Under the pieces are notes generated by a model that saw only the letters and a list, made by a program, of their open reading frames with translations, searched no databases and was not told the DNA's origin. From the sequence record PP430345: a DNA stretch of 64,000 nucleotides; one strand, given 5' to 3'. Of the stretch, positions 1 through 42,607 are shown one piece after another. The number at the start of each line of letters is the position of its first letter. The first letter of the stretch is position 1. Made by a program: the position numbers and the translations under genes. The DNA is from Escherichia phage vB_EcoM-LTH01.

Positions 1-2
1 GA

Positions 3-164
3 TCAACGTCCTACATGAAGGCAGAGCACATTATTCGTATTCTTCCACTCGACCAGTTCGATGAAGAAGAAAAGAAAAAGGATAAACTTGTTTCCGATTA
101 TCGTGAAAAAGAACTTAAATTAAGACTTGACTTGTTGGAACAAGCTGGTGTAGACTATATCTAA
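3..164 (+). CDS. hypothetical protein, 5'-truncated by window edge (ends ...LEQAGVDYI)
   Basis: Open frame 3 from window start to TAA at 162-164; same strand as downstream early genes. Confidence 0.3.
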   Translation, partial: STSYMKAEHIIRILPLDQFDEEEKKKDKLVSDYREKELKLRLDLLEQAGVDYI

Positions 165-187
165 CTTGAAACGAAGAGGATAATATA

Positions 188-454
188 ATGTCAGAAAAAA
201 CTTTAGTTGGTATTGAAAAAGCTTTCATCGAATCTTTTGATGGGTGGGATGAAATTGATTGTGGGGTGATGTATTTTTACGACGTTGTGTTAAAAGAAGA
301 ATATAAGCATCTCGTACCAGAAGGAACTGCCTCTGTAGGTATGGCTGTTAGTTCGACTGAGAGCTATGTCCAATTTAATTTCTTCGACAAGGACGACAAA
401 GCTACAACAAAAGCTTTCGAGATTAATCTTACTTTAGGTAAAGAAAAGTTATAG
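188..454 (+). CDS. hypothetical protein
   Basis: ORF track; GAGGA-type RBS upstream; tight packing with neighbours. Confidence 0.5.
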   Translation: MSEKTLVGIEKAFIESFDGWDEIDCGVMYFYDVVLKEEYKHLVPEGTASVGMAVSSTESYVQFNFFDKDDKATTKAFEINLTLGKEKL

Positions 455-475
455 ACTACCGAGGGGAATAAATAA

Positions 476-733
476 ATGAAATTTTACTCAGCAAAACATA
501 AATTTAGCGGTGAATTTGTTTCATTTTGGCAGACTGCCGACGATGATGGTTTTGTACATACAAAATTAAGTCTTTCTAATAACGAAAGGGACACACCTTT
601 TGTGACCTCGTTAGAACAGGTAGCCAAACTGATCAAAGGTAATCTTAACAATGATTGGTCTATTATTGTATACGATGAGCTTAAGGAAGCTGTTGAAAAT
701 TCAATGCTTGAAATCGTAGTAATTGATATCTGA
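476..733 (+). CDS. hypothetical protein
   Basis: ORF track; GAGGGG upstream; stop overlaps next start (ATCTGATG). Confidence 0.5.
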   Translation: MKFYSAKHKFSGEFVSFWQTADDDGFVHTKLSLSNNERDTPFVTSLEQVAKLIKGNLNNDWSIIVYDELKEAVENSMLEIVVIDI

Positions 734-915
734 TGAAAGTCAAAATCTTAGAATCAAAGACCAAACTGCTTGAGCAACTTAAGTATTACGGTGTCCAAAA
801 AGATTCAATTCTTTTCGTGACAAAAGAAAGCGCGTCTGGTACTATTATTGCGAATAAGGGCAAGGGCTATCAATTTATGCTCTTGAAAGATGAATACGAA
901 ATAGTTGAAGAATAG
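733..915 (+). CDS. hypothetical protein
   Basis: ORF track; start overlaps upstream stop. Confidence 0.4.
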   Translation: MKVKILESKTKLLEQLKYYGVQKDSILFVTKESASGTIIANKGKGYQFMLLKDEYEIVEE

Positions 916-923
916 GAGTCACC

Positions 924-1160
924 ATGTGGCCTTTTAAAAAGAAAGAAACTGAAGAAAACAAACCAAGTTGTAAACATGATTTTGTCATTACTCAATGTAA
1001 TCAAGTTACAAAGGTAATGTCTCGCTTCTACGATACAGAAGAGATCAAGACAACAGTTGTGTCACGTATTTGTCGGCAATGCCTTGTACAAGAGGCTCAC
1101 ACTGTTCCAGGTCACATTGATTATTCTAAAGCTTTAAATATTTTTGGAGGTACTCGATGA
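924..1160 (+). CDS. small Cys-containing protein (possible zinc-binding)
   Basis: ORF track; CxxxxxxC ... CRQC spacing; GGAG RBS. Confidence 0.4.
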   Translation: MWPFKKKETEENKPSCKHDFVITQCNQVTKVMSRFYDTEEIKTTVVSRICRQCLVQEAHTVPGHIDYSKALNIFGGTR

Positions 1161-1543
1161 GTTTATCAAAAAATAGAAAAGAGTTTAATGAATTTATTGA
1201 CAGCTTGGCAGGAAAGCCTTATATTAATGCCATCGTCTCTAAATATCCTTTGGCGCATCTGACCTTTGTTCCAGAAAAGCGATTGTACCAACTGGAAGAG
1301 GATGAAGTATTTTGCTGTACGTGCGGTTGTGGTGAGGTAAAACCTATTATGGTCCCTTACCCAACATTGAGTGTTGTATCACATACCGACGGACTGGAGG
1401 AGGCAGTAATCCACGGTTTTTGGGTATCACCTTGTAAACAAAAAAGTTCTTTTGATGATGAAGGTATTGTTGAATACTATGACATTGAAGTATTCAATGA
1501 TAAAACTGGTGAAATTGTTAAAGTGGAGATCAATTACGAATGA
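1157..1543 (+). CDS. hypothetical protein with CCTCGCG cysteine cluster
   Basis: ORF track; ATGA overlap with upstream stop. Confidence 0.45.
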   Translation: MSLSKNRKEFNEFIDSLAGKPYINAIVSKYPLAHLTFVPEKRLYQLEEDEVFCCTCGCGEVKPIMVPYPTLSVVSHTDGLEEAVIHGFWVSPCKQKSSFDDEGIVEYYDIEVFNDKTGEIVKVEINYE

Positions 1544-1857
1544 AAATTGTATGGGGTTTTACTAAAATAATCTTTATGATCCTGTGCCTTGCTGTACTAA
1601 ACCCACATCGTTTACTGCTGGCCTTGATTCACCTTTTAGCTGCAATATTTAGTTTTATCGCTTGGCGACTAGAAGACCTCGCGGGCTTTATGGGGAAGTG
1701 CGTTAAGAAAGGCATGAAGAAATTCTGGCTTTTTGGTGAGAAGTTATTATCTGAGCCTTTACATAAGGAAATCGAAAAGCTGGATATTATTTTGAAGGCC
1801 GCAGAAAAGAAACTCAATCCGAATAATGTTGACAAGGAAAAGGATGATGGTGTATAA
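1540..1857 (+). CDS. putative membrane protein
   Basis: Two hydrophobic segments in first 45 aa; ATGA overlap. Confidence 0.4.
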   Translation: MKIVWGFTKIIFMILCLAVLNPHRLLLALIHLLAAIFSFIAWRLEDLAGFMGKCVKKGMKKFWLFGEKLLSEPLHKEIEKLDIILKAAEKKLNPNNVDKEKDDGV

Positions 1858-2050
1858 AGTATTCTGCGAATGGGATATTGGTCAAGAAGGTATTGCATTT
1901 GTTTCAGAAAAGGCAGCACTCAATTGGATAGAGGGTCAAAAAGATATTCTTCTGTCTGACATTGATGAGACTATAAAAAGTCTTATGAAGCAACGTCTTT
2001 TAGTTATTGAGCCACTAATTGTTATTGATGAAAAAGGAGAAAGAGTATGA
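1844..2050 (+). CDS. hypothetical protein
   Basis: ORF track 1826-2050; start moved to ATG 1844 after AAGGA RBS to reduce overlap. Confidence 0.35.
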   Translation: MMVYKVFCEWDIGQEGIAFVSEKAALNWIEGQKDILLSDIDETIKSLMKQRLLVIEPLIVIDEKGERV

Positions 2051-2655
2051 TCAAGAAGTTTGTTGCTTGGGTAAAATCGCTGTTTATTCCTCTGGAAGTA
2101 GAAACTGCGGCGATCGACAAGTATATTGCAAAGCAGGCCGAACAGCGTAAGGAGACTGAAAGCGTTAAATTCGGCCCAGTTGAAACACGCGATCTGGAAG
2201 AACCATTAAAAGAAAATGAGGTATTGGTTGGGGTAAACATCAAAGATAAGACGATGAAGGTTGTTGATATCTCTGTTGAACGACCAAAATCACAGGCTAC
2301 GCCGCCGAAACCGTTGGATGAACAACTGAAGGGTGTTGAATTACCGTCCTATGCTCAAGGTAAGAAATTACCACCGAAGGCAAAGCGACAGTATATTGAT
2401 CAGGCCCGTCGGGCAGCACCACGTAAGATGAGCGACTCTCCAAATGGGTATGGAACTAGCCAGGTTGATCCTCAGGTGGCAGCTTTAGGTGGTGTGGCAA
2501 CGTATACTGCTGTAATGTCCTCCAGTGAAGATCGTACAAGTAGTTCAAGTTCTCACTGTTCTTCAAGTCGGTCAAGTTCGTATGATAGCTCATCATCGTA
2601 TGATAGTTATTCTTCTGATAGTAGCAGCAGTAGTTCTTCAAGCAGTTGTGATTGA
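2047..2655 (+). CDS. hypothetical protein with Ser-rich low-complexity C-terminal tail
   Basis: ORF track; last ~45 aa are mostly S/D/Y. Confidence 0.5.
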   Translation: MIKKFVAWVKSLFIPLEVETAAIDKYIAKQAEQRKETESVKFGPVETRDLEEPLKENEVLVGVNIKDKTMKVVDISVERPKSQATPPKPLDEQLKGVELPSYAQGKKLPPKAKRQYIDQARRAAPRKMSDSPNGYGTSQVDPQVAALGGVATYTAVMSSSEDRTSSSSSHCSSSRSSSYDSSSSYDSYSSDSSSSSSSSSCD

Positions 2656-2722
2656 TATTTAAGAGAGGGGCCGAAAGGCTCCTCACATCGGGAGTAAGAG
2701 TTTTAATTAGAGGAGTGATGAA

Positions 2723-3124
2723 ATGCGTAAAGTATACCCTAAGAAGCCAAATGCCACTAAAACCCCACGCTACGGTTCTGAAGAATGTCCGCGAATCACG
2801 GATGAAGAATCTCGTATCGTTAAGGAAAATTTTGCAGAAATATTTTTGTTTGGTCCCACTAATAATGATCCGTACACTCTGTTGGCTGAACGTTTAGGCT
2901 CAGATCGCAATCGAGCAAAAACTGTATACTATGCTTGGGTTTATCGACAGAAAGGTCATTATTTTCGTCATGTTACTCGGGAGCGTCAAGTTCGTTCACG
3001 TTTAGTCTGTCGTATCAAAAAGTACACAGAATTCTTAAACAATCCAGAAACTATCTATCAGATTATGTGTCGTGCAGAAGATGAGGTTGACGAACTGATT
3101 GCTAAGGGGACTATCAAACAATGA
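2723..3124 (+). CDS. hypothetical protein
   Basis: ORF track; GAGGAG RBS upstream. Confidence 0.45.
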   Translation: MRKVYPKKPNATKTPRYGSEECPRITDEESRIVKENFAEIFLFGPTNNDPYTLLAERLGSDRNRAKTVYYAWVYRQKGHYFRHVTRERQVRSRLVCRIKKYTEFLNNPETIYQIMCRAEDEVDELIAKGTIKQ

Positions 3125-3272
3125 TGATTTCTCCAGAGATTTTTGTAACGTTTTTCATTATGGTTTCTCTTGCAGGATCAAGGTTTTTACCTTTCAACGT
3201 ACTAAGTGCGACATGGTTCATACTTGGGACAATATTTGCAGTAGAGACTACAAAATATTTTGGAGGTAGCTA

Positions 3273-3572
3273 TTGAAAAGGTTAATCATTTTATGTATAC
3301 TTCTTCTTGTTGGTTGCGGAGAGGGTGAAGATGAGCAGACAAAGCGATACAAAAATCTACCTTCTCTGATGCCAACAGAGGTTAAGGAGTTACACGAATT
3401 TTGCAAGAAGCAACACAATTATTACAACAGTTATGCGGTTGTTGTTGATGGTGAAGCAAAATCTGTAATTTGCAAGTTCAAAGATAGTGAACGTGAAAAA
3501 GGTATCTCCTCAGGTTATACGTGGGATGCTCAAAGTTTAAGAGATAAAATGAAGGGGGTTAAAAATGAGTAA
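3273..3572 (+). CDS. putative lipoprotein (TTG start)
   Basis: N-terminus MKRLIILCILLLVGCGEGED has signal peptide plus lipobox LVGC; GGAGG RBS at 3262-3266. Confidence 0.5.
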   Translation: MKRLIILCILLLVGCGEGEDEQTKRYKNLPSLMPTEVKELHEFCKKQHNYYNSYAVVVDGEAKSVICKFKDSEREKGISSGYTWDAQSLRDKMKGVKNE

Positions 3573-3753
3573 TGATCTTAGTTCACATGCGGTAATGGGA
3601 CCTGGTGGTGCACTGATCGGGATCGCAATCACAAAAGGTATTGCAAATGAAATTATCATGGAGTTTCAAAAGAAAGGTCGAACGGGTTACTATGCAACCC
3701 CTGTAGAAAGTTGGATGTTAGATTACTTTAAAGACGATACCGAGGAGGCTTAA
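3565..3753 (+). CDS. small Gly-rich membrane protein
   Basis: GPGGALIGIAITKGIA hydrophobic helix; overlaps neighbours by a few nt. Confidence 0.4.
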   Translation: MSNDLSSHAVMGPGGALIGIAITKGIANEIIMEFQKKGRTGYYATPVESWMLDYFKDDTEEA

Positions 3754-4340
3754 TGGAATACATTAGTTGGTTGTTTATCTTATCTGCGTGGGTTATCTTT
3801 GCTATCTGGTTAGCCCCTGTGATCATCGCTTTCCGTCGTAATCACAAGAACAAGGTTGTAATTTTAGCTTTGTCATTCTTTACTTCAATGATCCCTTACC
3901 CGCTTGCATTGTTTGCTTGTTGGATAGTTCTGTTGGCTTGGTCATTGTATAAAGTTTCAGTGGTCAATGATGGCTCAAAGTCTGCATATTTAGATTCTAA
4001 GTATCTTGAGTATGCAAAAGGACCGCAAGGTTTACCTGGTCCAATGGGTCCCCGTGGAGAGTCTGCTTATGAAACATACCTGAGAATTCTTCGTAAAGAA
4101 GATCCTAGCGCTATCCCACTAAATGAGAAGGATTGGCTGGATAGTTTAAAAGGGTTGGATGGTGACAAAGGTGATCGAGGGCCATCTGCATACGATCTGT
4201 ATTGCTTATCTGTATGGTCCAAAGGTGATGGTAAAGTACCTCTGTCTTTAGATGAGTGGCTAGAATCTCTCCGTGGTAAAGATGCAGACGAATTACCTTT
4301 ATCTAAAAAAGGTGTCGTTAGTCCACCAAAACGTCCTTGA
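3753..4340 (+). CDS. membrane protein with short collagen-like Gly-X-Y motifs
   Basis: Two N-terminal TM helices, then GPQGLPGPMGPRGESAYETYL and DGDKGDRGPSAYDLY motifs resembling modules of the collagen-like structural protein. Confidence 0.5.
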   Translation: MEYISWLFILSAWVIFAIWLAPVIIAFRRNHKNKVVILALSFFTSMIPYPLALFACWIVLLAWSLYKVSVVNDGSKSAYLDSKYLEYAKGPQGLPGPMGPRGESAYETYLRILRKEDPSAIPLNEKDWLDSLKGLDGDKGDRGPSAYDLYCLSVWSKGDGKVPLSLDEWLESLRGKDADELPLSKKGVVSPPKRP

Positions 4341-4394
4341 CAGAAAGTTAAGTGTGGGGCATAATGGCCCCACTTAAACAACAGAGGAAAGAAG

Positions 4395-4775
4395 ATGAGT
4401 ATTTTTGACGGTAAAGATTATTTGGTTGCTGATTGGATTCCTATCTCTGCGACACGTAACATTCACATTTACGATGGTGTTAAGAATTTGAATACGACGA
4501 TCATCTACACAAACAGTGAAGAAGACCGTGAAATGCAAATCATGAGTGTCTTCGGTATTGATGATGAGAATAAGATTGAAAAAGGTCGTGCTCGTATTGG
4601 TATCGACATTTTCGACCTGTCTGGTGACCAAAGTGCAGATCCCGTAAACATTGACCGTTCTCGTGTGTTTGCTCACAAAGAAGAACAATTTACGGAAGAA
4701 CTTATTAAAGACTTGCAGATGATCAACACTTTGTTTGATAATGTTCATGAAAAAGTTAAGCGAGTTTATCTCTAA
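4395..4775 (+). CDS. hypothetical protein
   Basis: ORF track; AGGAAAGAAG RBS. Confidence 0.5.
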   Translation: MSIFDGKDYLVADWIPISATRNIHIYDGVKNLNTTIIYTNSEEDREMQIMSVFGIDDENKIEKGRARIGIDIFDLSGDQSADPVNIDRSRVFAHKEEQFTEELIKDLQMINTLFDNVHEKVKRVYL

Positions 4776-4782
4776 AAGTTGT

Positions 4783-4811
4783 TTGCAATTCAAATAAGTT
4801 AGTTGTAATAT
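4783..4811 (+). promoter_or_regulatory. putative sigma70-like promoter (TTGCAA-17-TAATAT)
   Basis: Hexamers read directly upstream of the 4859 gene. Confidence 0.35.
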
Positions 4812-4858
4812 AGTTTCTCGGCCTTAAGTGGTGTGTTCAATAGTTAAAGGAGATTTAA

Positions 4859-6034
4859 ATGTCTGAAGTTAAAGTTATCAATGCTGTATACGATGCTGTT
4901 TCCGATACCACAGTAAACATTGCAGCAGGTACGATTGAACGTATCCTCATTAAACGTATTAATGAAGATGGTAGTCCACGCGTTACCACCTTTAAAGATA
5001 AGAATACAGGTCAGCAAAAAAGCATTAACAATACCCACCGCTATGCAGTTCTTCTGAAAGAAGGTGAAGACCAGGCTTGGATTTCTTTTGGTGAAGGTGA
5101 AGTTAAAAACCTGAAGTATGAGAATCAGTTCCAGATTAAAAATCCTGAAGGTGGTTACACTGATCTTAAAGAAGGTATGAAAATTCGCTTACCTGTTGTT
5201 ATCAAGACCTACACCAAACAAGATGGTAGTCAGGGTTCTTCTACGGAAGGTAAGAAAGCACGTATCAAGATTACTGACGCATCCGGTGCTCGTGAGCCTC
5301 GTCAGCAACAGCAGCAATCAAGTGGTTCCCAACAGCAGCAAAAGCCGTCTGGTGGTGCAGCTAAGAAGATTTATGGTGATATCACATCTATCGAAGGCAA
5401 TAAGGTAGTTGTTAAGCTGGAAGACGGCACAGAAGTTACTGTAAACCTCACTGATGAACAGACGGGTCAGATTACAGAAGGTGGTCGTATTGCAGGTGTT
5501 CGTTCAGATGATGGTACGGTTACAAGCTTTAAAGCTTACGGTCCAAAAGGTGCAAATACTGGAACAGGATCACGTTCAGGTAAAGGTAAAGACGATCTGC
5601 CTATTCGTTTAGGTAATGCACTGTCTATCACAGATGCGATGTTCCCGAATGAAACGATCGCAAATCAGGGTATTGTTGTAGAGCAAGTTCTTGCAGCGAT
5701 GGACTCCATTAAAGCAAAACTTCGCGAAGAGTTTAAATCTATGGATGATTATTCTTTTGGTGCTCGTTTAGGCCAGTGTGGTATTCTTTCTGCCCGTTGG
5801 GGAAGTAATAACATTGAAACGTTTATTGCTAAAACAGAAGAGAATTTCCGATTTATCTGTCAGTTGGAAGATAAGATCCGTAACGGGGCTTCAACCCCTA
5901 AGCAAGAAGAAAAGAAATCTGAGCCGGAACCGCAGTTAACTCCGTCAGCAGAAGATTCACCTACACCTGATATCGAAGGCCATGTGAATATGTCTGTAGA
6001 TGATATGGATTTTGACGACGATATTCCGTTTTGA
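4859..6034 (+). CDS. ssDNA-binding-like protein with E. coli SSB-type acidic C-terminal tip
   Basis: Strong RBS AAAGGAGA; C-terminus MSVDDMDFDDDIPF matches the host SSB tip; internal Q/G/S-rich linker (REPRQQQQQSSGSQQQQKPSGG); N-terminal fold not assignable by eye. Confidence 0.5.
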   Translation: MSEVKVINAVYDAVSDTTVNIAAGTIERILIKRINEDGSPRVTTFKDKNTGQQKSINNTHRYAVLLKEGEDQAWISFGEGEVKNLKYENQFQIKNPEGGYTDLKEGMKIRLPVVIKTYTKQDGSQGSSTEGKKARIKITDASGAREPRQQQQQSSGSQQQQKPSGGAAKKIYGDITSIEGNKVVVKLEDGTEVTVNLTDEQTGQITEGGRIAGVRSDDGTVTSFKAYGPKGANTGTGSRSGKGKDDLPIRLGNALSITDAMFPNETIANQGIVVEQVLAAMDSIKAKLREEFKSMDDYSFGARLGQCGILSARWGSNNIETFIAKTEENFRFICQLEDKIRNGASTPKQEEKKSEPEPQLTPSAEDSPTPDIEGHVNMSVDDMDFDDDIPF

Positions 6035-6054: not shown

Positions 6055-6084
6055 TAAAGGCGCTCATTTGAGCGCCTTTTCTTT
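6055..6084. terminator. bidirectional rho-independent terminator between convergent genes
   Basis: Hairpin AGGCGCTC-ATTT-GAGCGCCT flanked by A-run on one side and T-run on the other. Confidence 0.6.
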
Positions 6085-19592: not shown

Positions 19593-22016
19593 TTATTGGT
19601 TACCACCCTGAGTGAGCAGGTTGATATTGAATCCGTTCTCTTCATCCACAATTGCACGGATATATTGACGAATCTCTCCACTCTTGATCTCAACGGTGAT
19701 CTTACCTTCAGGTGGTGCTGCTGGAGTTTCCAGAGGAAATCCGCTAGGGCGAATACCAGATGGAGTCGAGATAGTGTTAGGATCTACAGTTATGTCACGA
19801 GAGCCACCAAACAACTCTCTGAACACATCAGTTAACCCGACAGGTTGTGGAGTTACACCATATTGCTGCTGGAAAGCTGTTGCGTCAAGCCCTGCTCCAG
19901 CCAATCGGCTCTCTCCACTTTGGATAAAGCGGTCATTGATTTCTGACCCTGCTGAATAAAGCGTACCAAGGCCAAAAAGATTACCAAGCTTACCAAGTTG
20001 ACTGAATCTTCCAGCTACACTTGTCTTACCTGGGGTAGTTGCGCCACCAGAGGCTGTGGTGTTTGCACCAGTTGTGGTTTTTCCACCCGTAGCTAAATCT
20101 CCACCAAGGGTTCCACGAATCTCCTTAAGTGCACCTTTTAATCCTGCAATCTTAGCTAGGATATTAAACACTTTAGTTAGACCGCCGAGGAACAATCCGA
20201 TACCAAGGAGATAAGAACCCCAATCAAACACTTGACGAAGAGTATCACCTTCAACACCTATTTTCTTGAAGTAATAAGACACCACACGATCCAAAAGGAC
20301 AAGGTTATCATGTATTTCAAGAACCATGTCTGTAAATCCTTCAATTACGTTACCGAAGAATCTACCGATGGTGCTTGCAACGTTACCATTACTTGATAGG
20401 ATTGTAGCTAAGTTATTGAAAACTCTTGTCAGTTGTTCACCAAAGCCACCTTGGAATATTCTGTTTTGAAACTCTGCAAAAGTCTGAGTTAAACGCTGGT
20501 AAGCAACACGGTTACTTTCCAAAGCTTTATCCAGTGCACCACCTTTGTTAGCAGCCTCTGCATAGTATTTACCAACCAAAGGTATGATCTTGGAGGCTTT
20601 CAATTCACCATCTTCCATCAACTTCAACAATTTTGCAATGTCGATAGAGGTGTCGCCGAATGCTTCTTGAGTTGCTTTCAAGAATACCTGTAAAGAACCA
20701 GGAATTGCTTCAGCCAACTGACCCTTTAGTTCTTCAGCCATTACTTGACCTTTACCAAGGATCTGTTGAATTGCTGTAATGCCACGCTGATATCTTACAG
20801 GATCGACCTGAAGTGCGGTGGAATATTCAGAAAATGCACTAAATAATTCGTCTGTTTGAGATTTACTAATAACACCATCAGCAGAGATCGCTAACTGGGT
20901 AAATCCCTGCGATGCAGTTTTCAGATCCAAACCTAAACGGTATGCTTCGTCACGAACAAACTTAACACGCTGACCAGCTTCTTCTGCCGAATCAGAGATC
21001 AACAGAGATGTTGCATTGATTCCTTCGAAGAATTGACCTTGACGAGTTATTGATGCACCTGCTGAGAAAACTCCATATGCGGCAGTAGCACTTACCAAGC
21101 TGGAACGAACATCTTTAAGTGTGGAAGAGAAAGATCCAGCACTTGACTGTGCAGCACGGAATTGTCTTTCTAGCGCCTGTATGCTTTGACGATACTGCCC
21201 AGATGATAACGTACCAGCACGAAATTGTCTATTAAGATCTTCAATCCCACGACCTTCCGAGTCACGACCCAAAGCACCTGCATAACCACGACCATATCGA
21301 GAGGATAGACGAATACGTTGTTGTGCTGTAACATCATCAATACGGGCAGCAGCACGAGCAGCGCGGACACGTTCACGTTCCTGTTCTTGAGTTTGTTGCT
21401 TCTGCATTCTCTCTTTGATACGAGAACTACGTTGCATCGCTCTGTTTTGTGCAGCAATTAAATCAGGGTTGAATCGGCTATTAGGATCTCCAACAATACC
21501 TGACCCTGGCTCTCTGTTACCGCGAGATAATAATTGATTTGCAGCTTCCACACGTTGGATGTTGAAAGGCGGTAAAGGTGTCGCTGTACGGTTTGCAGAT
21601 CTTGCAGCAGCACGGGCAGCTTTCTCCTGTTCCTGATAGAACTTTCTCATCTCAGCAGAACCAGGGGATGCAGCCGTCAGGCTTTTAACCTGTTGTCGTA
21701 TTCTTGCAGCAGAAACCTTCTGAATTGCCTCTTTTGCCTTGGCTTCTTTCTTTGCCAGAGCAATACGATAATCAGTGGCCTTCTTCTCCTCACGCTTCCG
21801 AGTTTCTTCCAGACGTTTACTGACTAGTCTCATTTCACGAGCGGATTGTTTATAAGCCTCAGCAGGAGAATTCTTTCCGGCAGCGGTAGCCTCTGTTGAA
21901 GCCTTTTTCCATTCGTTGGAGAGTTTTCGGATCTCCTCACGAGCTTTTCGATAGGAACCTTTGTCAGTTTCAAATATGACTCGGTTCTTTGTTGTTGCAA
22001 TTACTTCAACAGCCAT
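19593..22016 (-). CDS. tail tape measure protein
   Basis: 807 aa, Ala/Arg/Gln-rich coiled-coil N-terminus, Gly-rich hydrophobic segment, canonical position after chaperone pair. Confidence 0.75.
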   Translation of the reverse strand: MAVEVIATTKNRVIFETDKGSYRKAREEIRKLSNEWKKASTEATAAGKNSPAEAYKQSAREMRLVSKRLEETRKREEKKATDYRIALAKKEAKAKEAIQKVSAARIRQQVKSLTAASPGSAEMRKFYQEQEKAARAAARSANRTATPLPPFNIQRVEAANQLLSRGNREPGSGIVGDPNSRFNPDLIAAQNRAMQRSSRIKERMQKQQTQEQERERVRAARAAARIDDVTAQQRIRLSSRYGRGYAGALGRDSEGRGIEDLNRQFRAGTLSSGQYRQSIQALERQFRAAQSSAGSFSSTLKDVRSSLVSATAAYGVFSAGASITRQGQFFEGINATSLLISDSAEEAGQRVKFVRDEAYRLGLDLKTASQGFTQLAISADGVISKSQTDELFSAFSEYSTALQVDPVRYQRGITAIQQILGKGQVMAEELKGQLAEAIPGSLQVFLKATQEAFGDTSIDIAKLLKLMEDGELKASKIIPLVGKYYAEAANKGGALDKALESNRVAYQRLTQTFAEFQNRIFQGGFGEQLTRVFNNLATILSSNGNVASTIGRFFGNVIEGFTDMVLEIHDNLVLLDRVVSYYFKKIGVEGDTLRQVFDWGSYLLGIGLFLGGLTKVFNILAKIAGLKGALKEIRGTLGGDLATGGKTTTGANTTASGGATTPGKTSVAGRFSQLGKLGNLFGLGTLYSAGSEINDRFIQSGESRLAGAGLDATAFQQQYGVTPQPVGLTDVFRELFGGSRDITVDPNTISTPSGIRPSGFPLETPAAPPEGKITVEIKSGEIRQYIRAIVDEENGFNINLLTQGGNQ

Positions 22017-29547: not shown

Positions 29548-32500
29548 TTAACCTATAGTCATTGCTTGAGTACCCGTCAGGAACTCACCATCCCAGAACA
29601 AGGTCAGGATAGTGCGAGTAGCCCCGAGAGTAGGTGCTGTTCCGTTAGACCAAGCGATCTGGCTATCCCAGTTAATCTGACCACCGTTACCAGTGAATCG
29701 TAAGACTATGGTTTTAGCCCTTCCTGCTGGCAATCCGGTGATGACTAAGGATTTGTTGGTAGTCCCATCTAAAGTCCAAGCGTTACCTGTGCTTGCATCA
29801 ATTGCCCCTGTAGAAGCAACAACACGCAAATCGTACTGGTCCAGCTTAACCCATGCGCCGTTTTCACGAACATAGAACCCACCTTCCAGCGGTGCTTCCA
29901 GAACTGGAACCGTCAATGTAGACCAAGCACCATCTTTACGGACGTACTGGTTACCATCACGAGGTGCTTCCAGAACTTCTGCGGTAGGCAGTTCAGTCCA
30001 ATCACCGTCGGTACGGACATACAGCTTTCCGTCCCCTGGTGCGTCATACACGTTACCACCACCTAAGAATCCGAGCAGTGCCCAGTTCGTTGCGGAAGTT
30101 TTACGGTAATATTCCAGAGTGGAAGAGTTCAGGTACAAATCGTTAAGACGACCATCGCTAACCATCGGTGCACGAGGGAAAACAACCCACAATGTACCTT
30201 GATCACCTTTAGCACCTGTCGGACCAGAAGGGCCTTGCGGACCTTGGTTACCCGTTGGACCAACTGGTCCTACTGGACCTTGGATACGTCCTAAGTTTTC
30301 GTATGCTGCACCAGTCCAACCCCAGAAGTCACCTTGGATAAGATAACCTTGACCCAAAGTACCAGTTGAAGGTAATTCATCAGAGGTATCAAATCGACCA
30401 ATGATCTCTACACCAGGACCAATATCTCCCTGAGGACCTTGCTCACCCTGTGGGCCTTGGTCGCCTTGTGGTCCTACTTCACCACGTTCACCCTGAGGAC
30501 CTTGCTCCCCTTGTGGCCCTGTGGCTCCAGTATCACCTTTGTCACCTTTAGCGCCAGTCAATCCCTGAGGGCCCTGAGTACCCTGAGGACCTTGCTCCCC
30601 TTGTGGGCCACGGGCAACCCCAGCCTCTACAAAAGCAGTTCCGTCGAAAGCGTAACCGATCCCAGTGTCGTCTGTGACATAGAAATCACCTACAGCACCA
30701 GTTTGAGGAAGGTCTGCTTGAGATGGTACAGTTCCTTTAGGGATCAGGCCAGAGCCAACATCCCCCTTGTCGCCTTTGTCTCCTTTTGCACCAGTTTCAC
30801 CAGCAGGTCCTTGTGGTCCTTGGTCACCCGTAGAACCTTTCTCACCTTGTGGACCTTGAGGACCAACTTCTCCTTGAGGGCCGACCTCACCCTGCGGTCC
30901 GCGAACGGTTCCGGCAGAAACGAATTCCACGCCATCCCAAGCGTAACCGATCCCAGTGTCTTCAGCTACGTAGAAGTCACCTAATTCAGCAGTAGAAGGA
31001 AGTTCAGCGGAGGTTGCAACCAAACCTTTCAGCTTCAGTGCATCACCTGCGTCGCCTTTGTCTCCTTTGTCTCCTTTCTCACCAGTGTCGCCTTTGTCGC
31101 CCTTCAGACCCTGAGGTCCACGAGTAAGACCAGTCAGTACCCATGCAGTGCCATCCCAAGCATAACCATTACCTTCAGACTCTACAACGTAGAAGTCACC
31201 AGTGGTGGCATCGGCAGGAAGTGCTTCTTGAGTTGCAACAATACCACGAGCAACGATACCAATTCCAGTATCACCCTTATCACCCTTATCGCCCTTGTCA
31301 CCTTTTTCGCCAGTCTCACCCTGTGGACCAATACCACCTTGTGGACCAGTCTCACCTTGGGGGCCAGCAGGACCTTGTGCCCCTGTTGCACCCTGCGGTC
31401 CTTGTGCACCAGTCAGACCAATAGGACCTTGTGGACCTTGTGGTCCTACATCCCCTTGGGGACCTTTGATGTTACCAACGTTAGTCCACTGACCGCCAGT
31501 AAAGATATAAAGATCAGCTTCAATCAGATAAGCATCACCTTCACTAATACCAGTCTGAGGCAATTGGTCTTCGGAAGCTACTGAGCCAAGGATATTCAGA
31601 CCCGCACCAACAGGACCTTGTTCACCTTGTGGACCAGTTAATCCACGAGGGCCAGTTGCACCCACGTCACCTTTTTCACCCTTCAAGGTTGCAAGGTATT
31701 CATTAACTGAACCTTCGAAACCGTTAGCAACCGCGATAGTGTAGTTGTCGTCTCCTTTATCGCCTTTATCGCCTTTGTCCCCTTTATCGCCTTTATCACC
31801 CTTAGCACCAACTGGGCCTTGTGGGCCTTGGAAAGATCCCAAATCTTCCCAGTTACCAGTACCATCAGAAACGAAGACATTAGTTCCGATCAGGTAAGCA
31901 TCACCCGCATCAGCACCTGCTGGCAAACTTGCTTCATCGGCAACAGAACCTAAGATATTAATAGCGTTAGCATTCTTACCGTCAACACCAGGTTCACCCT
32001 GCGGTCCTTGTTCACCAACATCCCCTTTCTCACCCTTCAGCGATTCAAGAAATTCACGTTGAGAACCAACGTTACCGTTAGCCAGCCAGACCTGATAAGC
32101 AGAACGACCTTCAGGGCCAATCTGGCCTACTGGTTGCCATTTATCGGTATCTCCCGTCCAAACATACATCTTTTCTTGAATGATGTAGGCATCACCAGGT
32201 TTGTTCTCTTCTTGAGGAAGATCTTCGATACGCTGGAAAGAACCAAGGAGTTGCAGACCTATACCGTCAGCACCACGAAGGGTAGCCAACCAGTCATCGA
32301 CTGTTCCAACAAAGCCTGCGGTTTCAGCAACTTCAAATGCAGAAAGACCTTCAGGTCCAGCGAAGTTACCTACGTTTCTCCATTGTTTGATACCACCTTC
32401 AGTGATAACGGTAAAGAAACTCTGTCCGATTACGTATGTATCACCATTCGCAAGATCAACAACAGAAGGCAATTGATCTTCAGATGCCAAGGTGTCGAGG

Positions 32501-33348
32501 ATGTTGATACCAATACCAGCAGGGCCACGAGGACCTTCTACACCACGAGGGCCAGTTGCTCCAGTCAGACCGATAGGTCCAGTTGCGCCAGCAGGACCGA
32601 CTTCTCCAGTATCCCCTTTATCCCCTTTTTCACCCTGCGGGCCAACAGGTCCAGTTTCTCCGGCTGGGCCTTGTGGACCTGCTGGTCCTTGTTCACCCTG
32701 ATCGCCTTTGTCACCTTTGATGGTTTCTACAAACAGACCATCTGAACGTTGTTCCAGTTTGTTACCTGCATCTTGAGAAATGTCAGCACCAACTGGAGCC
32801 ACATACAGTGCACCTTCACGAACTTGCAAGCTGTTGTCGATAGCGGGGGAAACTTTAACTGCCAAACCATCAGGGTCTACAGACAAAGCGTTAGTTGAAG
32901 AGGTGGAAACTTTCAGGGATATACGGGAGTTTTTAGCAACCAGAGGATCTGCGGTAATTTCCAGTGCGTCACCAACAGCGGTAGTGGTAGCATGAACTGG
33001 CTCAACCAGAACACCTTCCAAACTGGCATCACCTTGAGCAGCAGCTTCTTCCGCAGTGACGTATTTTGCAACGTTCGCCTGAGAGGTAGATACTTTAGCA
33101 TCTCCAGCGGAAGCAAACAAGCCTTCCTCGTTATCAGTCTGAACCAGAGTCAGGGCGTTACCTGCACGGCGAGATAGCTTAACTTGAGCTTGCAGAGGGG
33201 AAGAGGTAGTACCATTACCAACTAACAGGGTAGATACAGTATCTTCCGTTTCAATACCGTTAAAAATAACTCCACCACCAGTGGTAGTTACGACAGGATC
33301 AGGAGCAGTAACGAATGCTTCCACGACCTTATCATTATATTCAGCCAT
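29548..33348 (-). CDS. giant modular collagen-like fiber protein (1266 aa)
   Basis: At least eight Gly-X-Y blocks alternating with ~40-aa repeated globular modules (GDAYLIG..., [17 protein letters not shown]...), [12 protein letters not shown] runs, three C-terminal repeats (YVR.DG.W). Confidence 0.75.
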
Positions 33349-38870: not shown

Positions 38871-40358
38871 TTATCGTCTATACCTGGAATACATCGTAGG
38901 GGCGTGAGGTCGTGGTATTGGAACAGCACGGACAATTTCTGTTTTCTCCAGATAGTTAATACCCGAAGAGATGGCATCCACCCAGTCGTCCTTACGTGAT
39001 CCAGTTGACCTCTCGCCGTCGAAAGATTCAAGTTCCTTCAATAAAGCTTCTAATGTGTCCACAGGGAAAGATTTCTCAACAATCCGTACAAATCCGTTCT
39101 GTGCTAAGTTAGCGAACGGAGAGAAGCGTACAAGCTTCTTTTTGTTACCTGGTGTTGGGTCTTTCTCAACCATGAACCCTTGATTCAATAACTCACGAGA
39201 AGATGTAGTAAATTCGGATAGACCTGCTTGACCAGGGTCAACAGGGAAGATGATCCTAACGTCATCTCCGTCATGTATTGCCTGTTTAAGAATAATCTTG
39301 TCACGCTCACCTGCTTTTTTGCAGAAGCGTCCGGCTTGTCCAGTGGACCAATCGCCAGTATCAACGAATTCATCACAATAATCACCGAACAGGTAGTAGA
39401 ACCCATCCTGATCTCGCGCTACACCTATACCTGCCGTGAAGTCAGGTGTTTTGTTACCTGTGGAACGCTCTGTACCTGCTTTATCGTAAGATCTAACCTT
39501 GTCGCAATTAAGCGGGAGATGATCTACATTTTTGAGGAAAGAACGTTTAAAATAGTTTGCACCCTGCGGACGAGCATCCCAGTTACCATGAAGAAGTCGT
39601 GCACGGTCAACCTCGTTAAGACCTTCCAACTGAGCAAGGTATTCGGGGTTGTTGATAAGCATTGGCGGGTTGTCATAAATAGTGGAAGATATGAATGTGA
39701 ACGATACGGGCTTACATTTCTTACCATAACGTTTCTTCAACTCCTCTACTGAGTCTCCCCACATGTATTGGTCATCCACACGGACGAAATAACGAATAAC
39801 TCCGTCTTTTTCAGGATTAGGATAGCCATCCTTATCGAGATACCAGTCAACCATCTTACGAAGGTAATGATCAGGATCAGGGTTGCAACTTATTACCATA
39901 CGGGAAGGGTATTTTGAGTTTGAACGCAAACGGGACATCATATATTCCAACTGTTCCCATTCGAACTGTGTTCCTTCGTCAACTCCGATAAAGGTAAACT
40001 CCAATCCCTGAATATCGAATTTATCGCTTACGTGTTGCATAGACTGCCATTTAACGGTAGCCCCGTTAGGAAATGTTGCAGTCATTTCATTTTCTTTAAA
40101 CTTAGGCTTAACTACCGGAGGTAGTTGGTTGTAAATATCCTTAGCTTTGTCGAACAAACCACCTTGTCCACGAATCTGAGGGACGGTACGACGGAACATG
40201 ATACATGCTGTTCTGGGGTCGTTTACAATCAACAAAGGCATCAACTGGAGCAGGTAGGACTTACCTGATCCTGCTGCACCACCTATAACCATTATTTGTG
40301 CGTCAGATTCGAGAACCATTTGTTGCTTTCGACTCGCTGGTGCGAATGTAGCAGACAT
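38871..40358 (-). CDS. terminase large subunit
   Basis: Walker A GGAAGSGKS near N-terminus, Walker B-like FIGVDEGTQF, C-terminal nuclease-sized domain; first gene of head module. Confidence 0.85.
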   Translation of the reverse strand: MSATFAPASRKQQMVLESDAQIMVIGGAAGSGKSYLLQLMPLLIVNDPRTACIMFRRTVPQIRGQGGLFDKAKDIYNQLPPVVKPKFKENEMTATFPNGATVKWQSMQHVSDKFDIQGLEFTFIGVDEGTQFEWEQLEYMMSRLRSNSKYPSRMVISCNPDPDHYLRKMVDWYLDKDGYPNPEKDGVIRYFVRVDDQYMWGDSVEELKKRYGKKCKPVSFTFISSTIYDNPPMLINNPEYLAQLEGLNEVDRARLLHGNWDARPQGANYFKRSFLKNVDHLPLNCDKVRSYDKAGTERSTGNKTPDFTAGIGVARDQDGFYYLFGDYCDEFVDTGDWSTGQAGRFCKKAGERDKIILKQAIHDGDDVRIIFPVDPGQAGLSEFTTSSRELLNQGFMVEKDPTPGNKKKLVRFSPFANLAQNGFVRIVEKSFPVDTLEALLKELESFDGERSTGSRKDDWVDAISSGINYLEKTEIVRAVPIPRPHAPTMYSRYRR

Positions 40359-40458: not shown

Positions 40459-40758
40459 TTATTTGCAGAACTCTGGTGGATTTTCTTTAAAAATATTACA
40501 AACGTAGGTCTGTAATCCTTCAGCACGTCTTTCTATTCTTGCAGCACGAAGATTGTTATGACTAAGAACGTCAGCAACAGTTGTCTTTGCAGAGCGTTTT
40601 TCCATAACCAGCTTAGGACCTTCTTTCTTCATAAGTTCAAGATCCGGCTTTTCGATCAGCTTTTCTATCTTAACTTCTTCAGTAGGACCACAAATTTCTT
40701 TACTCTGACAACCAACAAGACCAAAACAAAGGATAATTCCGGCGATAATCTTCTTCAT
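40459..40758 (-). CDS. outer-membrane lipoprotein, o-spanin-like
   Basis: MKKIIAGIILCFGLVGC has signal peptide plus lipobox; several Cys; start overlaps stop of upstream TM/coiled-coil gene. Confidence 0.45.
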   Translation of the reverse strand: MKKIIAGIILCFGLVGCQSKEICGPTEEVKIEKLIEKPDLELMKKEGPKLVMEKRSAKTTVADVLSHNNLRAARIERRAEGLQTYVCNIFKENPPEFCK

Positions 40759-41117
40759 TATTCCCCCAGTGATTTGTTATAGATATCAACTATCTCATCA
40801 TCCATAAATATTTCTTGTCCCTTTTTAGATTTTGCATAGTCGATTCTCATTGCCTCTACTTCATCACGTAATTTTTCCTCAGCGATGATCCGTTTTGCAT
40901 TTGCATAAGAAAGTTCTTCATTCAATCTCTTATTCTCTTCCAATGTAGAGTCAAGCTTTCCTTTGTACTCAGTAGCTTTCTTTATCCAAGCCGTGTTTGC
41001 AGCATCGTAGCCTTTGTCATATCCCACAGACTCAACGTGTCCGAGATACAGTTTTCCAGAAGTAAATAACGCAACGCCGATCATTGCGTAAATGAAATAT
41101 TTTTTAGCGGGTAACAT
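40758..41117 (-). CDS. inner-membrane coiled-coil protein, i-spanin-like (start at internal ATG 41117)
   Basis: AAGGAGGA RBS 7 nt before ATG (MLPAKKYFIY...); N-terminal TM then coiled-coil; upstream ATG 41174 would fall inside a terminator. Confidence 0.45.
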   Translation of the reverse strand: MLPAKKYFIYAMIGVALFTSGKLYLGHVESVGYDKGYDAANTAWIKKATEYKGKLDSTLEENKRLNEELSYANAKRIIAEEKLRDEVEAMRIDYAKSKKGQEIFMDDEIVDIYNKSLGE

Positions 41118-41234: not shown

Positions 41235-41309
41235 TGGCTGGGGATACTGGACTCGAACCAGTGAATGTTGGAATCAAAATCCAATGCCTTACCGCTTGGC
41301 TAATCCCCA
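41235..41309 (-). tRNA. tRNA-Gln (anticodon TTG)
   Basis: Manual cloverleaf: 7-bp acceptor, anticodon arm TTGGA-TTTTGAT-TCCAA, T-arm ACTGG-TTCGAGT-CCAGT, encoded CCA; close to E. coli tRNA-Gln. Confidence 0.8.
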
Positions 41310-41317
41310 TTTTTGTT

Positions 41318-41393
41318 TGGAGCGGATAACGAGACTCGAACTCGTGACATTCTGATTGGAAATCAGAAGCTCTACCAACTGAGCTATACCCGC
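41318..41393 (-). tRNA. tRNA-Gly (anticodon TCC)
   Basis: D-arm GCTCAGTTGGTAGAGC, anticodon arm TCTGA-TTTCCAA-TCAGA, T-arm ACGAG-TTCGAGT-CTCGT, CCA encoded. Confidence 0.8.
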
Positions 41394-41398
41394 ATATT

Positions 41399-41475
41399 TG
41401 GTCGGTGTACGAGGATTTGAACCTCGAACCTAATGCTCCCAAAGCATTCGCGCTACCAAGTTGCGCTATACACCG
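41399..41475 (-). tRNA. tRNA-Pro (anticodon TGG)
   Basis: Anticodon arm AATGC-TTTGGGA-GCATT, T-arm CGAGG-TTCAAAT-CCTCG, CCA encoded. Confidence 0.8.
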
Positions 41476-41479
41476 TATT

Positions 41480-41560
41480 TGGCGTGAAGGTGAAGAGTCG
41501 AACTCCTTACGACTGGTTTTGGAGGCCAGCTTGCCACCGTGACAATTATGTTACCCGCAC
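41480..41560 (-). tRNA. tRNA-Trp-like (anticodon CCA), atypical 5' half
   Basis: Anticodon loop CTCCAAA and T-arm GGAGTTCGA resemble tRNA-Trp, but acceptor pairing needs a mismatch and the D-arm region is ~5 nt too long. Confidence 0.4.
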
Positions 41561-41569
41561 ATTAATTTG

Positions 41570-41642
41570 GTTTCCGTACTGGATTCGAACCAGTATCACA
41601 ACGAGACGTTGCGGGAATCTTATCCTATAAGCCTAACGGAAA
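41570..41642 (-). tRNA. tRNA-like element, possibly non-functional
   Basis: Perfect acceptor (TTTCCGT/ACGGAAA), U8-A9 and T-arm ACTGG-TTCGAAT-CCAGT, but anticodon-position hairpin has a 3-nt TCT loop on a 7-bp stem. Confidence 0.3.
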
Positions 41643-41645
41643 ATT

Positions 41646-41732
41646 TGGTGCATTGTGATGGAGTCGAACCACCCGAGTTCTATGAACAGCAGATTTACAG
41701 TCTGCCCCGCTACCCCTACGGTCTAACAATGC
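41646..41732 (-). tRNA. tRNA-Tyr (anticodon GTA), long variable arm
   Basis: Anticodon arm GCAGA-CTGTAAA-TCTGC identical to E. coli tRNA-Tyr; variable arm GTTC-ATA-GAAC; perfect 7-bp acceptor; CCA encoded. Confidence 0.8.
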
Positions 41733-42040
41733 CTTATCCTACGGTCACACAAGTCTGACCATCTATCTCTGAGCAAGGGATTTCAAAATGTCTCCCGTCC
41801 CCAAATACATCTCGCCACATAGTCTATTCGGAAGCGGGAGTCTATGCACACCCCTTGCGGTAAGTGACCTCACTTTGAGATCAGCATCTTCCTTATTCGA
41901 CGAGTTAAATTCTCTTTAAGGTAGCCAGTGTTCGCAGCACTAACTATGAGGTATCCGTAAGATGATTTCAGTCATCTACCGAAAAATTACACCAAGCAAC
42001 TACCTTAAAGAGAACTTCTTAGTAAAGGCCCTTGCGAGCC

Positions 42041-42415
42041 TTAATCTTCACCTTCTGCCATTTTATACTCACGAATCTGAGTAGTTAATGGAATAGCATC
42101 TTTAAATGCATCAGAAGGGCCTTGATGAGTTTCTGAATTTGCAGAAGTAGTTCCTCCTGCCAGATCCTCTTCATTATCTTCCATTGTGTACAGATTGTTT
42201 GCCTTTTCAGCTTGCTCAAGAATATACTTCGCAGTAGTTTCTTTAACTTTCTCTGTACCGGAAGTCAGTAGACCTTCCAGAGTTTTAATTGCTTGAGGAG
42301 TAAGTCTTGCAAACTCGGAACGAGCATGAAGAATTGCTCTCTCAGTATTGATTGCAATGCTTTCCTCTGTAGTAGGCCGACCGCGTTTTCGAGTAACGAT
42401 TTCAGCTTTAGCCAT
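42041..42415 (-). CDS. hypothetical early protein (basic N-terminus RKRGRPTTEE, acidic C-terminus)
   Basis: ORF track 42041-42421; ATG 42415 preferred (GAGG + 5-nt spacer); promoter-like hexamers just upstream. Confidence 0.45.
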   Translation of the reverse strand: MAKAEIVTRKRGRPTTEESIAINTERAILHARSEFARLTPQAIKTLEGLLTSGTEKVKETTAKYILEQAEKANNLYTMEDNEEDLAGGTTSANSETHQGPSDAFKDAIPLTTQIREYKMAEGED

Positions 42416-42442
42416 AAACACCTCAATTCAGTCGATATAACT

Positions 42443-42471
42443 ATATTAGCAGTATAATAGGATTATGTCAA
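42443..42471 (-). promoter_or_regulatory. putative sigma70-like promoter (TTGACA-17-TAATAT)
   Basis: Consensus -35 and 4/6 -10 read on minus strand upstream of the 42415 start. Confidence 0.4.
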
Positions 42472-42607
42472 GAACTTATTGAAATGTATTAAGAAATGAA
42501 ATGGGGGTGCGCCGTTTCTGCTGTAATCTACGTCGTTATCGTTGAGGGAACTCGTAGTCAGGGAACATCAGTCCGACGACTTATCGGGAGCGACCCGACT
42601 TCTTATG

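Follow-up and report, generated by a model that had tools for sequence, protein, structure and literature searches.

The DNA examined here is a stretch of 64,000 nucleotides from Escherichia phage vB_EcoM-LTH01 (PP430345), called the window below, to which the DNA of the Escherichia phages UPEC06, A73, W70 and A5-4 (the last named Septuagintavirus sv54) is 94-95% identical and which belongs to a Vequintavirinae myovirus. One of its genes encodes a 195-residue protein in which an N-terminal membrane hairpin, similar to phage T4's superinfection-immunity protein, Imm, is followed by a collagen-like segment carrying repeats of the kind found in tail-fiber shafts. A preliminary description, made from the sequence alone, had noticed motifs shared between this protein and a large collagen-like structural protein of the window, and had proposed that a structural module was duplicated into the membrane protein, which might then present a fiber-like domain at the cell envelope. 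The shared motifs are confirmed; the interpretation holds in part.

The 195-residue protein and its gene

In the window a cluster of small genes on the + strand (1-6034) and a virion module on the - strand run towards each other; where they meet, between the small genes and the tail-fiber genes, lies a bidirectional terminator-like hairpin with a perfect 10-bp stem (6056-6079). The open reading frame (ORF) of the 195-residue protein belongs to the small-gene cluster; its ATG shares the sequence TAATG with the stop of the preceding ORF, and the GC-rich hairpin that follows its own stop (Table 1) may be the end of the operon. This hairpin overlaps a promoter-like site, TTGACA-17-CATAAT (4337-4365), which is a consensus match only, and in a scan of the window the promoter and terminator matches were at chance level and bear neither way on the "early" expression previously ascribed to the gene. 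Orthologs with 91-97% identity are found in five Septuagintavirus-like genomes. A word-indexed homology search with the protein retrieved same-genus proteins only, and PADLOC gave no match for the gene or for five neighbors.

Hydropathy and charge analysis places two hydrophobic segments, residues 4-27 and 35-65, on either side of a basic loop, RRNHKNK, and AlphaFold2 (AF2) models helices at residues 2-28, 34-45 and 50-65 of the first 65 residues with predicted local distance difference test (pLDDT) values of 83-89, which agrees with the two N-terminal transmembrane (TM) helices noted before. The Imm-like core (residues 18-65) takes in the end of TM1, the whole of which spans residues 4-27 (nucleotides 3762-3833), the loop (residues 28-34) and the second segment, kinked at P48/P50. 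The motifs quoted in the preliminary description are all present, both in the 1266-residue ORF of the large structural protein and in the 195-residue protein, where GPQGLPGPMGPRGESAYETYL occupies residues 90-110, DGDKGDRGPSAYDLY residues 136-150 and DEWLESLRGKD residues 167-177.

Around these motifs the protein consists of a degenerate, truncated repeat, two Gly-X-Y runs alternating with two full repeats (here called SAY modules), and a C-terminal peptide containing PLSKxG and a basic tail. The degenerate copy is not significant with either of the module hidden Markov models (HMMs) described below, and phage A5-4 has a 5-residue in-frame deletion at this point. In the first Gly-X-Y run, G90, P91, G93 and G96 are kept across orthologs; on the protein as a whole Pfam Collagen (PF01391) reaches 14.6 bits, short of its 27.2-bit threshold. 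Each SAY module is modeled by AF2 as helix-loop-helix (residues 105-116 and 125-132 in module 1), and a Foldseek search of the PDB with the AF2 model of the protein gave no match. Weak Pfam/NCBIfam matches to Sel_put and KCU-star at residues 102-128 were set aside as chance.

Table 1. Positions of the 195-residue protein gene, its parts and other features of the window (res, residues; i-E, independent E value)
Feature	Coordinates	Strand	Basis
Upstream partner 1, 51 residues, two hydrophobic segments, PHROG 22594	3121..3276	+	Certrevirus alignment; PHROG
Upstream partner 2, 99-residue lipoprotein, lipobox LVGC and two further invariant Cys, PHROG 15849	3273..3572	+	Alignment
Shine-Dalgarno sequence GAGGAGG, 6 nucleotides upstream of the 195-residue ORF	3741..3747	+	Read from sequence
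Gene for Imm-like membrane protein with collagen/fiber-repeat stalk, 195 residues	3753..4340	+	ORF list; stop TGA 4338-4340
Imm_superinfect (PF14373)-like core, res 18-65	3804..3947	+	Pfam, orthologs, hhalign, family profile, AF2
Degenerate, truncated SAY module, res 77-89, SAYLDSKYLEYAK then G90	3981..4019	+	Alignment of orthologs, by eye
Gly-X-Y run 1, five triplets, res 90-104, GPQGLPGPMGPRGES	4020..4064	+	Sequence analysis
SAY module 1, long subtype, res 104-134, SAYETYLRILRKEDPSAIPLNEKDWLDSLKG	4062..4154	+	Long-type HMM, regular expression
Gly-X-Y run 2, four triplets, res 134-145, GLDGDKGDRGPS	4152..4187	+	Sequence analysis
SAY module 2, long subtype, res 145-175, SAYDLYCLSVWSKGDGKVPLSLDEWLESLRG	4185..4277	+	Long-type HMM
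Family-specific C-terminal peptide GKDADELPLSKKGVVSPPKRP, res 175-195	4275..4337	+	Family alignment
GC-rich hairpin GTGGGGC-ATAATG-GCCCCAC, 14 nucleotides past the stop of the 195-residue gene	4354..4373	+	Read from sequence
Tape-measure protein of the window, probable target of the hairpin by analogy with T4 Imm	19593-22016	-	
Collagen-rich virion fiber, 1266 residues, PHROG 3904	29548..33348	-	Pfam Collagen 1.3e-44, Fibritin_C 5.6e-10
Fiber SAY module without SAY start, res 536-557	31678..31743	-	Short-type HMM 26.8 bits, i-E 2.1e-7
Fiber SAY module, short subtype, res 414-439	32032..32109	-	Short-type HMM 42.9 bits, i-E 1.9e-12
Fiber SAY module, short subtype, res 334-359	32272..32349	-	Short-type HMM 31.7 bits, i-E 5.8e-9
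Outer-membrane spanin (o-spanin), PHROG 1267, E 2.4e-14	40459-40758	-	PHROG
Inner-membrane spanin (i-spanin), PHROG 4297, E 2.5e-20; listed ORF reaches TTG start 41174	40758-41117	-	PHROG

The Imm-like hairpin and its family

The N-terminal hairpin of the protein was compared with the Imm_superinfect family (PF14373) by several routes. Seven of eight orthologs match PF14373 (best E 1.8e-5), with scores of 14-22 bits among the relatives and 58 bits for T4 Imm, and the 195-residue protein matches PHROG 1039, "immunity to superinfection," with E 2.7e-6. Alignment by hhalign of 11 family N termini with T-even Imm gave a probability of 79.6% (E 1.5e-5, 60 columns) and paired P22, A26, R29, W57, W63 and S64 with T4 residues P26, A30, R33, W55, W61 and S62. 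When a profile of the family N terminus was run against 5.8 billion proteins, it returned the family and after it PF14373-annotated proteins only (E 1.5e-4 to 0.09); four family members have PF14373 matches of their own among precomputed annotations, and "Superinfection immunity protein" is the UniRef name of the orthologs in CR8 and PBES02.

The features of the Imm hairpin can be followed residue by residue. Like T4 Imm and PF14373, the protein has two hydrophobic helices with a short basic loop between them, Pro and Ala in helix 1 and the Arg equivalent to R33, in the pattern P-x-I-I-A-x-(K/R)-R-x-H-(K/R)-N ... W-x-x-L-L/A-W-S-L; the canonical YLIPTIIAIKREHRNKVPIFVV...ALAWSL of PF14373 is answered by WLAPVIIAFRRNHKNKVVILAL...LLAWSL in the window protein. 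Three of these positions, P22, H31 and N33, do not vary across the family, and A26, R29 and W57 hardly do. From these profile and residue comparisons we conclude that the N-terminal domain of the 195-residue protein is homologous to the Imm_superinfect hairpin, formally under the Pfam threshold. According to a 2026 preprint (bioRxiv 10.64898/2026.03.06.709160), T4 Imm binds the tape-measure protein and blocks genome entry, R33 is required for its activity, and its N terminus is periplasmic. Both proteins are phage-encoded, non-virion and located among small non-structural genes, and by analogy both would act at the inner membrane. The PF14373 members retrieved have 57-121 residues (T4 Imm has 83) and no extramembrane domain, whereas the window protein adds ~130 residues in the form of a collagen-like stalk, two fiber repeats and the PLSKxG-basic tail, besides a 6-residue insertion at the W50 loop.

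Syntenic orthologs were located by tblastn in the Certrevirus phages KaOmega, CR3, CR8, CR9, PBES02, DU_PP_I, POP15 and others and in Salmonella phage SSBI34, with metagenomic members besides. The family follows one plan, a TM hairpin, 4-13 Gly-X-Y triplets, zero to two SAY modules and P-L-S-K-x-G with basic residues; TM2 and PLSKxG are 30 to 114 residues apart, the largest distance being that of the window's lineage. The most conserved extramembrane element of the family is PLSKxG, which does not vary among 20 family members and has a basic tail after it; in most members G-K/R-D-A-D-E-I/L precedes it, and the motif was found neither in the fiber-like database matches discussed below nor in the rest of the window. 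In the Certrevirus and SSBI34 orthologs the architecture is unchanged, but the stalk is collagen throughout and lacks SAY modules. A single SAY module is present in P0007, P0012, P0020 and P0148, two modules and a remnant in the window's lineage, and orthologs with 10-13 triplets pass PF01391 or carry a precomputed match to it (P0106, for example, with 32.7 bits). Judged from this distribution, the SAY modules look like patchy insertions in the collagen stalk. The Imm-like nature of the helices, the orthologs of the sister genera without SAY modules and the C-terminal PLSKxG peptide all lie outside what the preliminary description had noted.

The gene is under purifying selection. Compared with UPEC06, the ratio of nonsynonymous to synonymous divergence (dN/dS) comes to 0.19 for the whole gene, to 0.04 for the hairpin and to 0.28 for residues 71-142, and residues 143-195 show zero nonsynonymous differences. 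Synonymous divergence (dS) is 0.55 in residues 71-142 (nucleotides 3963-4178), about three times that of the flanks (0.17 in the hairpin and 0.17 in the last module and tail), which suggests mosaic exchange, or a recombinational patch, in the stalk.

The SAY repeat and the virion fiber

The 1266-residue protein with which the motifs are shared is structural, as had been supposed: it has the domains of a fiber (Table 1), and its W70 ortholog, W70_131, has the top spectrum count and is the most abundant protein in the W70 virion proteome (PMC11370258). The ortholog of the 195-residue protein is absent from the 28 virion proteins of the same phage (PMC11370258), and for this reason we regard the 195-residue protein as non-virion. 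Between residues ~280 and 1020 the fiber also contains ~8 copies of a ~45-residue unit, ILGSVAxExxLPxxGxxGDAYLIxxxxYxWxGxxWxxxGxxxGPQG, alternating with collagen runs.

To what extent the two proteins share more than collagen composition could be judged by alignment, by profile and by pattern. BLASTP with composition-based statistics aligns residues 96-146 with fiber residues 408-451 (35% identity, E 2e-6), the best partner being the fiber module at residues 414-439, and this alignment crosses a non-collagen segment; many weaker high-scoring segment pairs between the two proteins are pure Gly-X-Y. A HMMER search of 1.84 billion representatives gave 295 matches, and among the best 150 of the 295, on which our figures rest, most are long proteins of roughly 400-2800 residues that match residues ~88-180 in up to 18 stretches. 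From 843 modules of 142 unrelated database proteins (142 of those best 150) we built third-party module HMMs, which, run on the 1019 ORF segments of the window, match the 195-residue and 1266-residue ORFs alone, with 27-43 bits per module and the next best segment at E 0.9. The regular expression SA[YF]...[WFY]Lx[ST]L[KR]G, applied to all six-frame ORFs of the window, likewise finds these two proteins only. The preliminary description had asked whether the likeness might be confined to generic Gly-X-Y, and the weaker segment pairs would fit such a chance, compositional resemblance; the pairwise alignment and the HMM scores reach past Gly-X-Y in both proteins, and we consider that explanation refuted. 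The shared unit is real, and it is predominantly a repeat of tail-fiber shafts.

The modules sit in phase within the Gly-X-Y runs (G-x-S-A-Y ... S-L-K-G-x-x-G), and the same alternation of Gly-X-Y runs with ~23-31-residue modules, in register, is seen in collagen-like fiber shafts, including the window fiber (PHROG 3904) and PHROGs 4440 and 15437. PHROG matches over the SAY/collagen region of the 195-residue protein are to tail-fiber families, and tblastn with the top HMMER match falls on annotated tail-fiber genes. Compared with such shafts, the 195-residue protein has two long-subtype modules only and lacks both an N-terminal virion-attachment domain and a distal receptor-binding domain; it is anchored by a membrane hairpin, and its ortholog is not in the W70 virion proteome, so it does not have the make-up of a virion tail fiber. 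No Pfam model covers the repeat, even in the many-copy protein P0003. PDB sequence searches with the 195-residue protein, with the long-type array P0016 and with a short-type array found no relevant relative; for the last of these the only matches were to collagen chains and to ankyrin-repeat designs (best E 0.02). In the literature we found nothing relevant on the SAY motif, on PF14373 or on Imm combined with collagen.

The modules fall into two subtypes, a short one of 23 residues (SAYEIAVxNGFxGTxxEWLxSLK; 570 of the 843 modules) and a long one of 25-32 residues (SAYELYVxxxxxGxTPLSxxEWLxSLK). Both full modules of the membrane protein are of the long subtype (30 residues), scoring 29.1 bits (i-E 6.5e-8; match over residues 102-134) and 33.5 bits (i-E 2.7e-9; residues 143-175) with the long-type HMM and yielding half-module fragments only with the short-type HMM. 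The three modules of the fiber are all short (23 residues, SAYxxAxxNGFxGTxxEWLxSLK), and the long-type HMM gives them 7.2, 18.8 and 1.9 bits; the two proteins are told apart by the subtype HMMs. Ranked by global BLOSUM62 score as partners for the modules of the membrane protein, those of the window's own fiber stand at 425-711 of 843. Given this rank and the difference in subtype, recent copying from the phage's own fiber is not indicated, and on these comparisons the common motif is true homology within a very large repeat family, not evidence that the own fiber was the donor. Modules 1 and 2 of the membrane protein agree at ~12 of 34 positions, which argues against a recent tandem duplication; module 1 is near the module of P0007 and module 2 resembles that of P0012, so at least some of the stalk variation would be old within the family.

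Duplication from the own fiber, with display of the product as an envelope decoy or mimic that occupies the receptor or binds incoming fibers, therefore has to be weighed against a looser relationship. The repeat family occurs in these two proteins and in no other ORF of the window, and the distal, C-terminal domain of the window fiber has 42% identity (E 1e-67) to the metagenomic fibers P0003 and P0004, the top matches of the search, so that fibers of this kind and the membrane protein would draw on one pool of modules. Against this stand the subtype difference and the low rank already given, and tblastn with the 195-residue protein, which finds one place per related genome record and no closer copy elsewhere. 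Moreover, the Certrevirus and SSBI34 orthologs keep hairpin, collagen and C-terminal peptide without any SAY module, so that the core role can do without it; receptor binding is not the task of the shaft repeats in fibers, and the predicted site is the periplasmic face of the inner membrane and not the cell surface. We hold this explanation to be improbable. Of the duplication first proposed, what stands is a homologous tail-fiber shaft repeat in the membrane protein; its derivation from the phage's own fiber does not.

The shafts of P0003 and P0004 consist almost wholly of long-type SAY modules, and what the two have in common with the window fiber is the distal domain only. The idea that they are fibers of sequenced Vequintavirinae was dropped, since the nearest sequenced relatives by tblastn are jumbo-phage fibers with ~30% identity. 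In P0050, P0033 and P0123, which are apparently cellular, SAY/collagen arrays stand behind signal-anchor or lipoprotein-like N termini; P0050 ends in a trypsin-like protease with a weak, sub-threshold PDZ match (HtrA-like). Such arrays in exported bacterial proteins suggest that the module serves as a stalk outside virions too.

Neighbors, topology and a possible role in exclusion

In Septuagintavirus, Certrevirus and SSBI34 the Imm-like gene is preceded by genes for a 50-51-residue protein and a 92-99-residue lipoprotein with three Cys kept, with overlapping starts and stops. The lipoprotein of the window has 38-44% identity to its Certrevirus/SSBI34 orthologs, which immediately precede the Imm-like gene, and the 51-residue protein is found at the same position in loci L010 and L011. 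Pfam gave no match for either partner, nor PADLOC for the lipoprotein; the two may be further envelope or exclusion factors. A 62-residue ORF (3565-3753, +) stands between lipoprotein and Imm-like gene in the window's lineage only and has no PHROG, Pfam or PADLOC match. Downstream of the Imm-like gene a DUF7325 protein is encoded. KaOmega (L002:1830-2483) and CR9 (L004:1817-2461) have an extra ~215-residue gene right after the Imm-like gene, which is not present in CR3, DU_PP_I or the window. Further upstream in the window (2047-2655, +), a 202-residue protein with an extremely Ser-rich C-terminal tail, SSSSSSHCSSSRSSSYDSSSSYDSYSSDSSSSSSSSSCD, falls in PHROG 13005, a family annotated as of unknown function.

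A trio of genes conserved and translationally coupled in this way could be a lysis set, holin/antiholin-like or spanin-like, in which the stalk bridges the inner membrane to the outer-membrane lipoprotein. The inner-membrane anchor and the elongated oligomeric periplasmic stalk, both predicted, and the lipoprotein gene alongside recall the Rz/Rz1 spanins; the lipoprotein weakly matches PHROG 812, "Rz-like spanin" (E 0.0067), and T4 Imm is said to resemble a holin (PMC6832632). However, an i-spanin has one TM segment and a coiled coil, whereas the 195-residue protein has two TM helices and collagen; its lipoprotein partner is not proline-rich, and P0180 (locus L008), the most distant family member, is without a lipoprotein neighbor. 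The canonical Rz/Rz1 pair of the window is found elsewhere (40459-41117, -), with overlapping stop and start, adjoining the large terminase gene (38871-40358) and away from any endolysin, an arrangement also described for Certrevirus CB7, rV5 and PVP-SE1, in which the candidate holin is located next to a SleB-like enzyme (PMC7344957). With this pair in place the trio is unlikely to be spanin-like, and a function in lysis appears doubtful. The region 41235-42682 (-) of the window contains a cluster of five tRNA genes (Gln-TTG, Gly-TCC, Pro-TGG, Tyr-GTA and Met-CAT), and several of the ORFs listed there are translated tRNA genes.

The charge distribution of the hairpin bears on its orientation. 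The loop between the helices has a charge of +4 and the flank after TM2 is neutral or acidic, from which, by the positive-inside rule, we infer that the N terminus and the stalk are periplasmic and the loop RRNHKNK cytoplasmic. This N-out/C-out topology would be compatible, by analogy, with the reported periplasmic N terminus of T4 Imm and with the exported SAY/collagen proteins. The membrane anchoring proposed earlier holds as a hairpin with a predicted periplasmic stalk, although its location would be the periplasmic face of the inner membrane and not the cell surface. Nor does a fiber-like display at the envelope fit: the Imm-like helices, the orthologs without SAY and the absence of PLSKxG from fibers all point to the stalk being a spacer or oligomerization device and not a fiber mimic.

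Taken together, we favor the reading that the 195-residue protein is a non-virion, probably trimeric superinfection-exclusion protein of the inner membrane, with an Imm-type hairpin, a predicted periplasmic stalk of variable length and a C-terminal tip, and we put its probability at roughly 0.55. By analogy with T4 Imm, the hairpin would act at the inner membrane, where it would intercept the tape-measure protein or the tail-tip complex of a related phage that superinfects, so that genome translocation stops. The stalk, resembling a fiber shaft in that two helix-loop-helix SAY...WLxSLKG modules break up its short Gly-X-Y runs without loss of phase, would probably trimerize the protein, as collagen-like fiber shafts trimerize, and set its reach from the membrane, and in some lineages of the family SAY modules may have been inserted into, or exchanged within, the collagen. 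The C-terminal (D-A-D-E-L/I)-P-L-S-K-x-G with its basic residues is a likely contact site for a partner, and together stalk and peptide might contribute avidity via trimerization, periplasmic reach or a means of binding a partner, for instance the lipoprotein.

Several points weigh against this reading. The PF14373 match of the protein itself (residues 18-43, 20 bits, E 6.5e-4) lies below the gathering threshold of 27.9 bits, and hydrophobic helices readily give compositional matches when profiles are compared. W50, part of the loop through which T4 Imm is said to touch the tape-measure protein, is not kept; its place is taken by the 6-residue insertion with an invariant Pro, which would fit a different target specificity. 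Canonical Imm needs no extramembrane domain, and the analogy therefore leaves the stalk and the PLSKxG peptide unaccounted for. With Gly-X-Y runs of only five and four triplets stable trimerization is not guaranteed, and the single-chain AF2 model of the stalk has a low pLDDT (36-58). Finally, the second hydrophobic stretch is long (31-37 residues) and kinked at a Pro-x-Pro, and it could form a re-entrant hairpin, in which case the stalk would be cytoplasmic, the compartment in which fiber-type modules normally fold.

A cytoplasmic stalk would suggest a membrane tether that co-trimerizes with, scaffolds or sequesters collagen/SAY fiber proteins during virion assembly. The strongly basic extreme C terminus is consistent with such a tether, as is a match of residues 81-145 to PHROG 19976, "tail assembly protein" (E 3.1e-8), yet this match is confined to the collagen/SAY repeat. 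The +4 loop, the neutral or acidic flank and the periplasmic N terminus of T4 Imm fit the opposite orientation, the module subtype is unlike that of the own fiber, which argues against co-trimerization, and the gene lies among small non-structural genes on the strand opposite to the virion module. A role in assembly is accordingly one to which we assign little likelihood.

Returning to exclusion at the inner membrane, a more elaborate version can be put forward tentatively, with the odds clearly against it. The hairpin, a trimeric stalk and the PLSKxG-basic tip might form a periplasm-spanning "anti-injection" device, perhaps with the co-transcribed outer-membrane lipoprotein and the 51-residue protein. 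The tip of this device would seize the tail tip or tape-measure protein on its way in, or attach to the lipoprotein or cell wall, before the tube meets the inner membrane, and the length of the stalk would be tuned by swapping shaft modules. If so, it would be a trans-envelope superinfection-exclusion complex without a described counterpart. Ltp, a lipoprotein of Streptococcus phage TP-J34 that targets the tape measure, and the T5 lipoprotein Llp belong to the phage envelope proteins by which a second phage is halted at DNA entry or earlier, and we take the lipoprotein upstream of the Imm-like gene to be reminiscent of them. HK97 gp15 is a further exclusion protein of this group and targets the tape measure (bioRxiv 10.64898/2026.03.06.709160). 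No sequence relationship was detected between the window proteins and HK97 gp15, Ltp or Llp.

The finding is best filed as a new Imm-type superinfection-immunity architecture with borrowed tail-fiber shaft elements as its stalk, the Imm family itself being known. It would give an example of tail-fiber shaft modules reused as spacers in a non-virion protein, and it draws attention to a very common fiber repeat, SAY...WLxSLKG in two subtypes, which has neither a Pfam model nor a solved relative detectable by sequence. Imm-type proteins are classic yet poorly understood injection blockers of the T-even phages, and a stalked Imm relative with a conserved tip would provide a handle on the encounter of these proteins with the incoming tail in the periplasm. 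In the Vequintavirinae, the protein is a candidate determinant of mutual exclusion among phages combined in cocktails.

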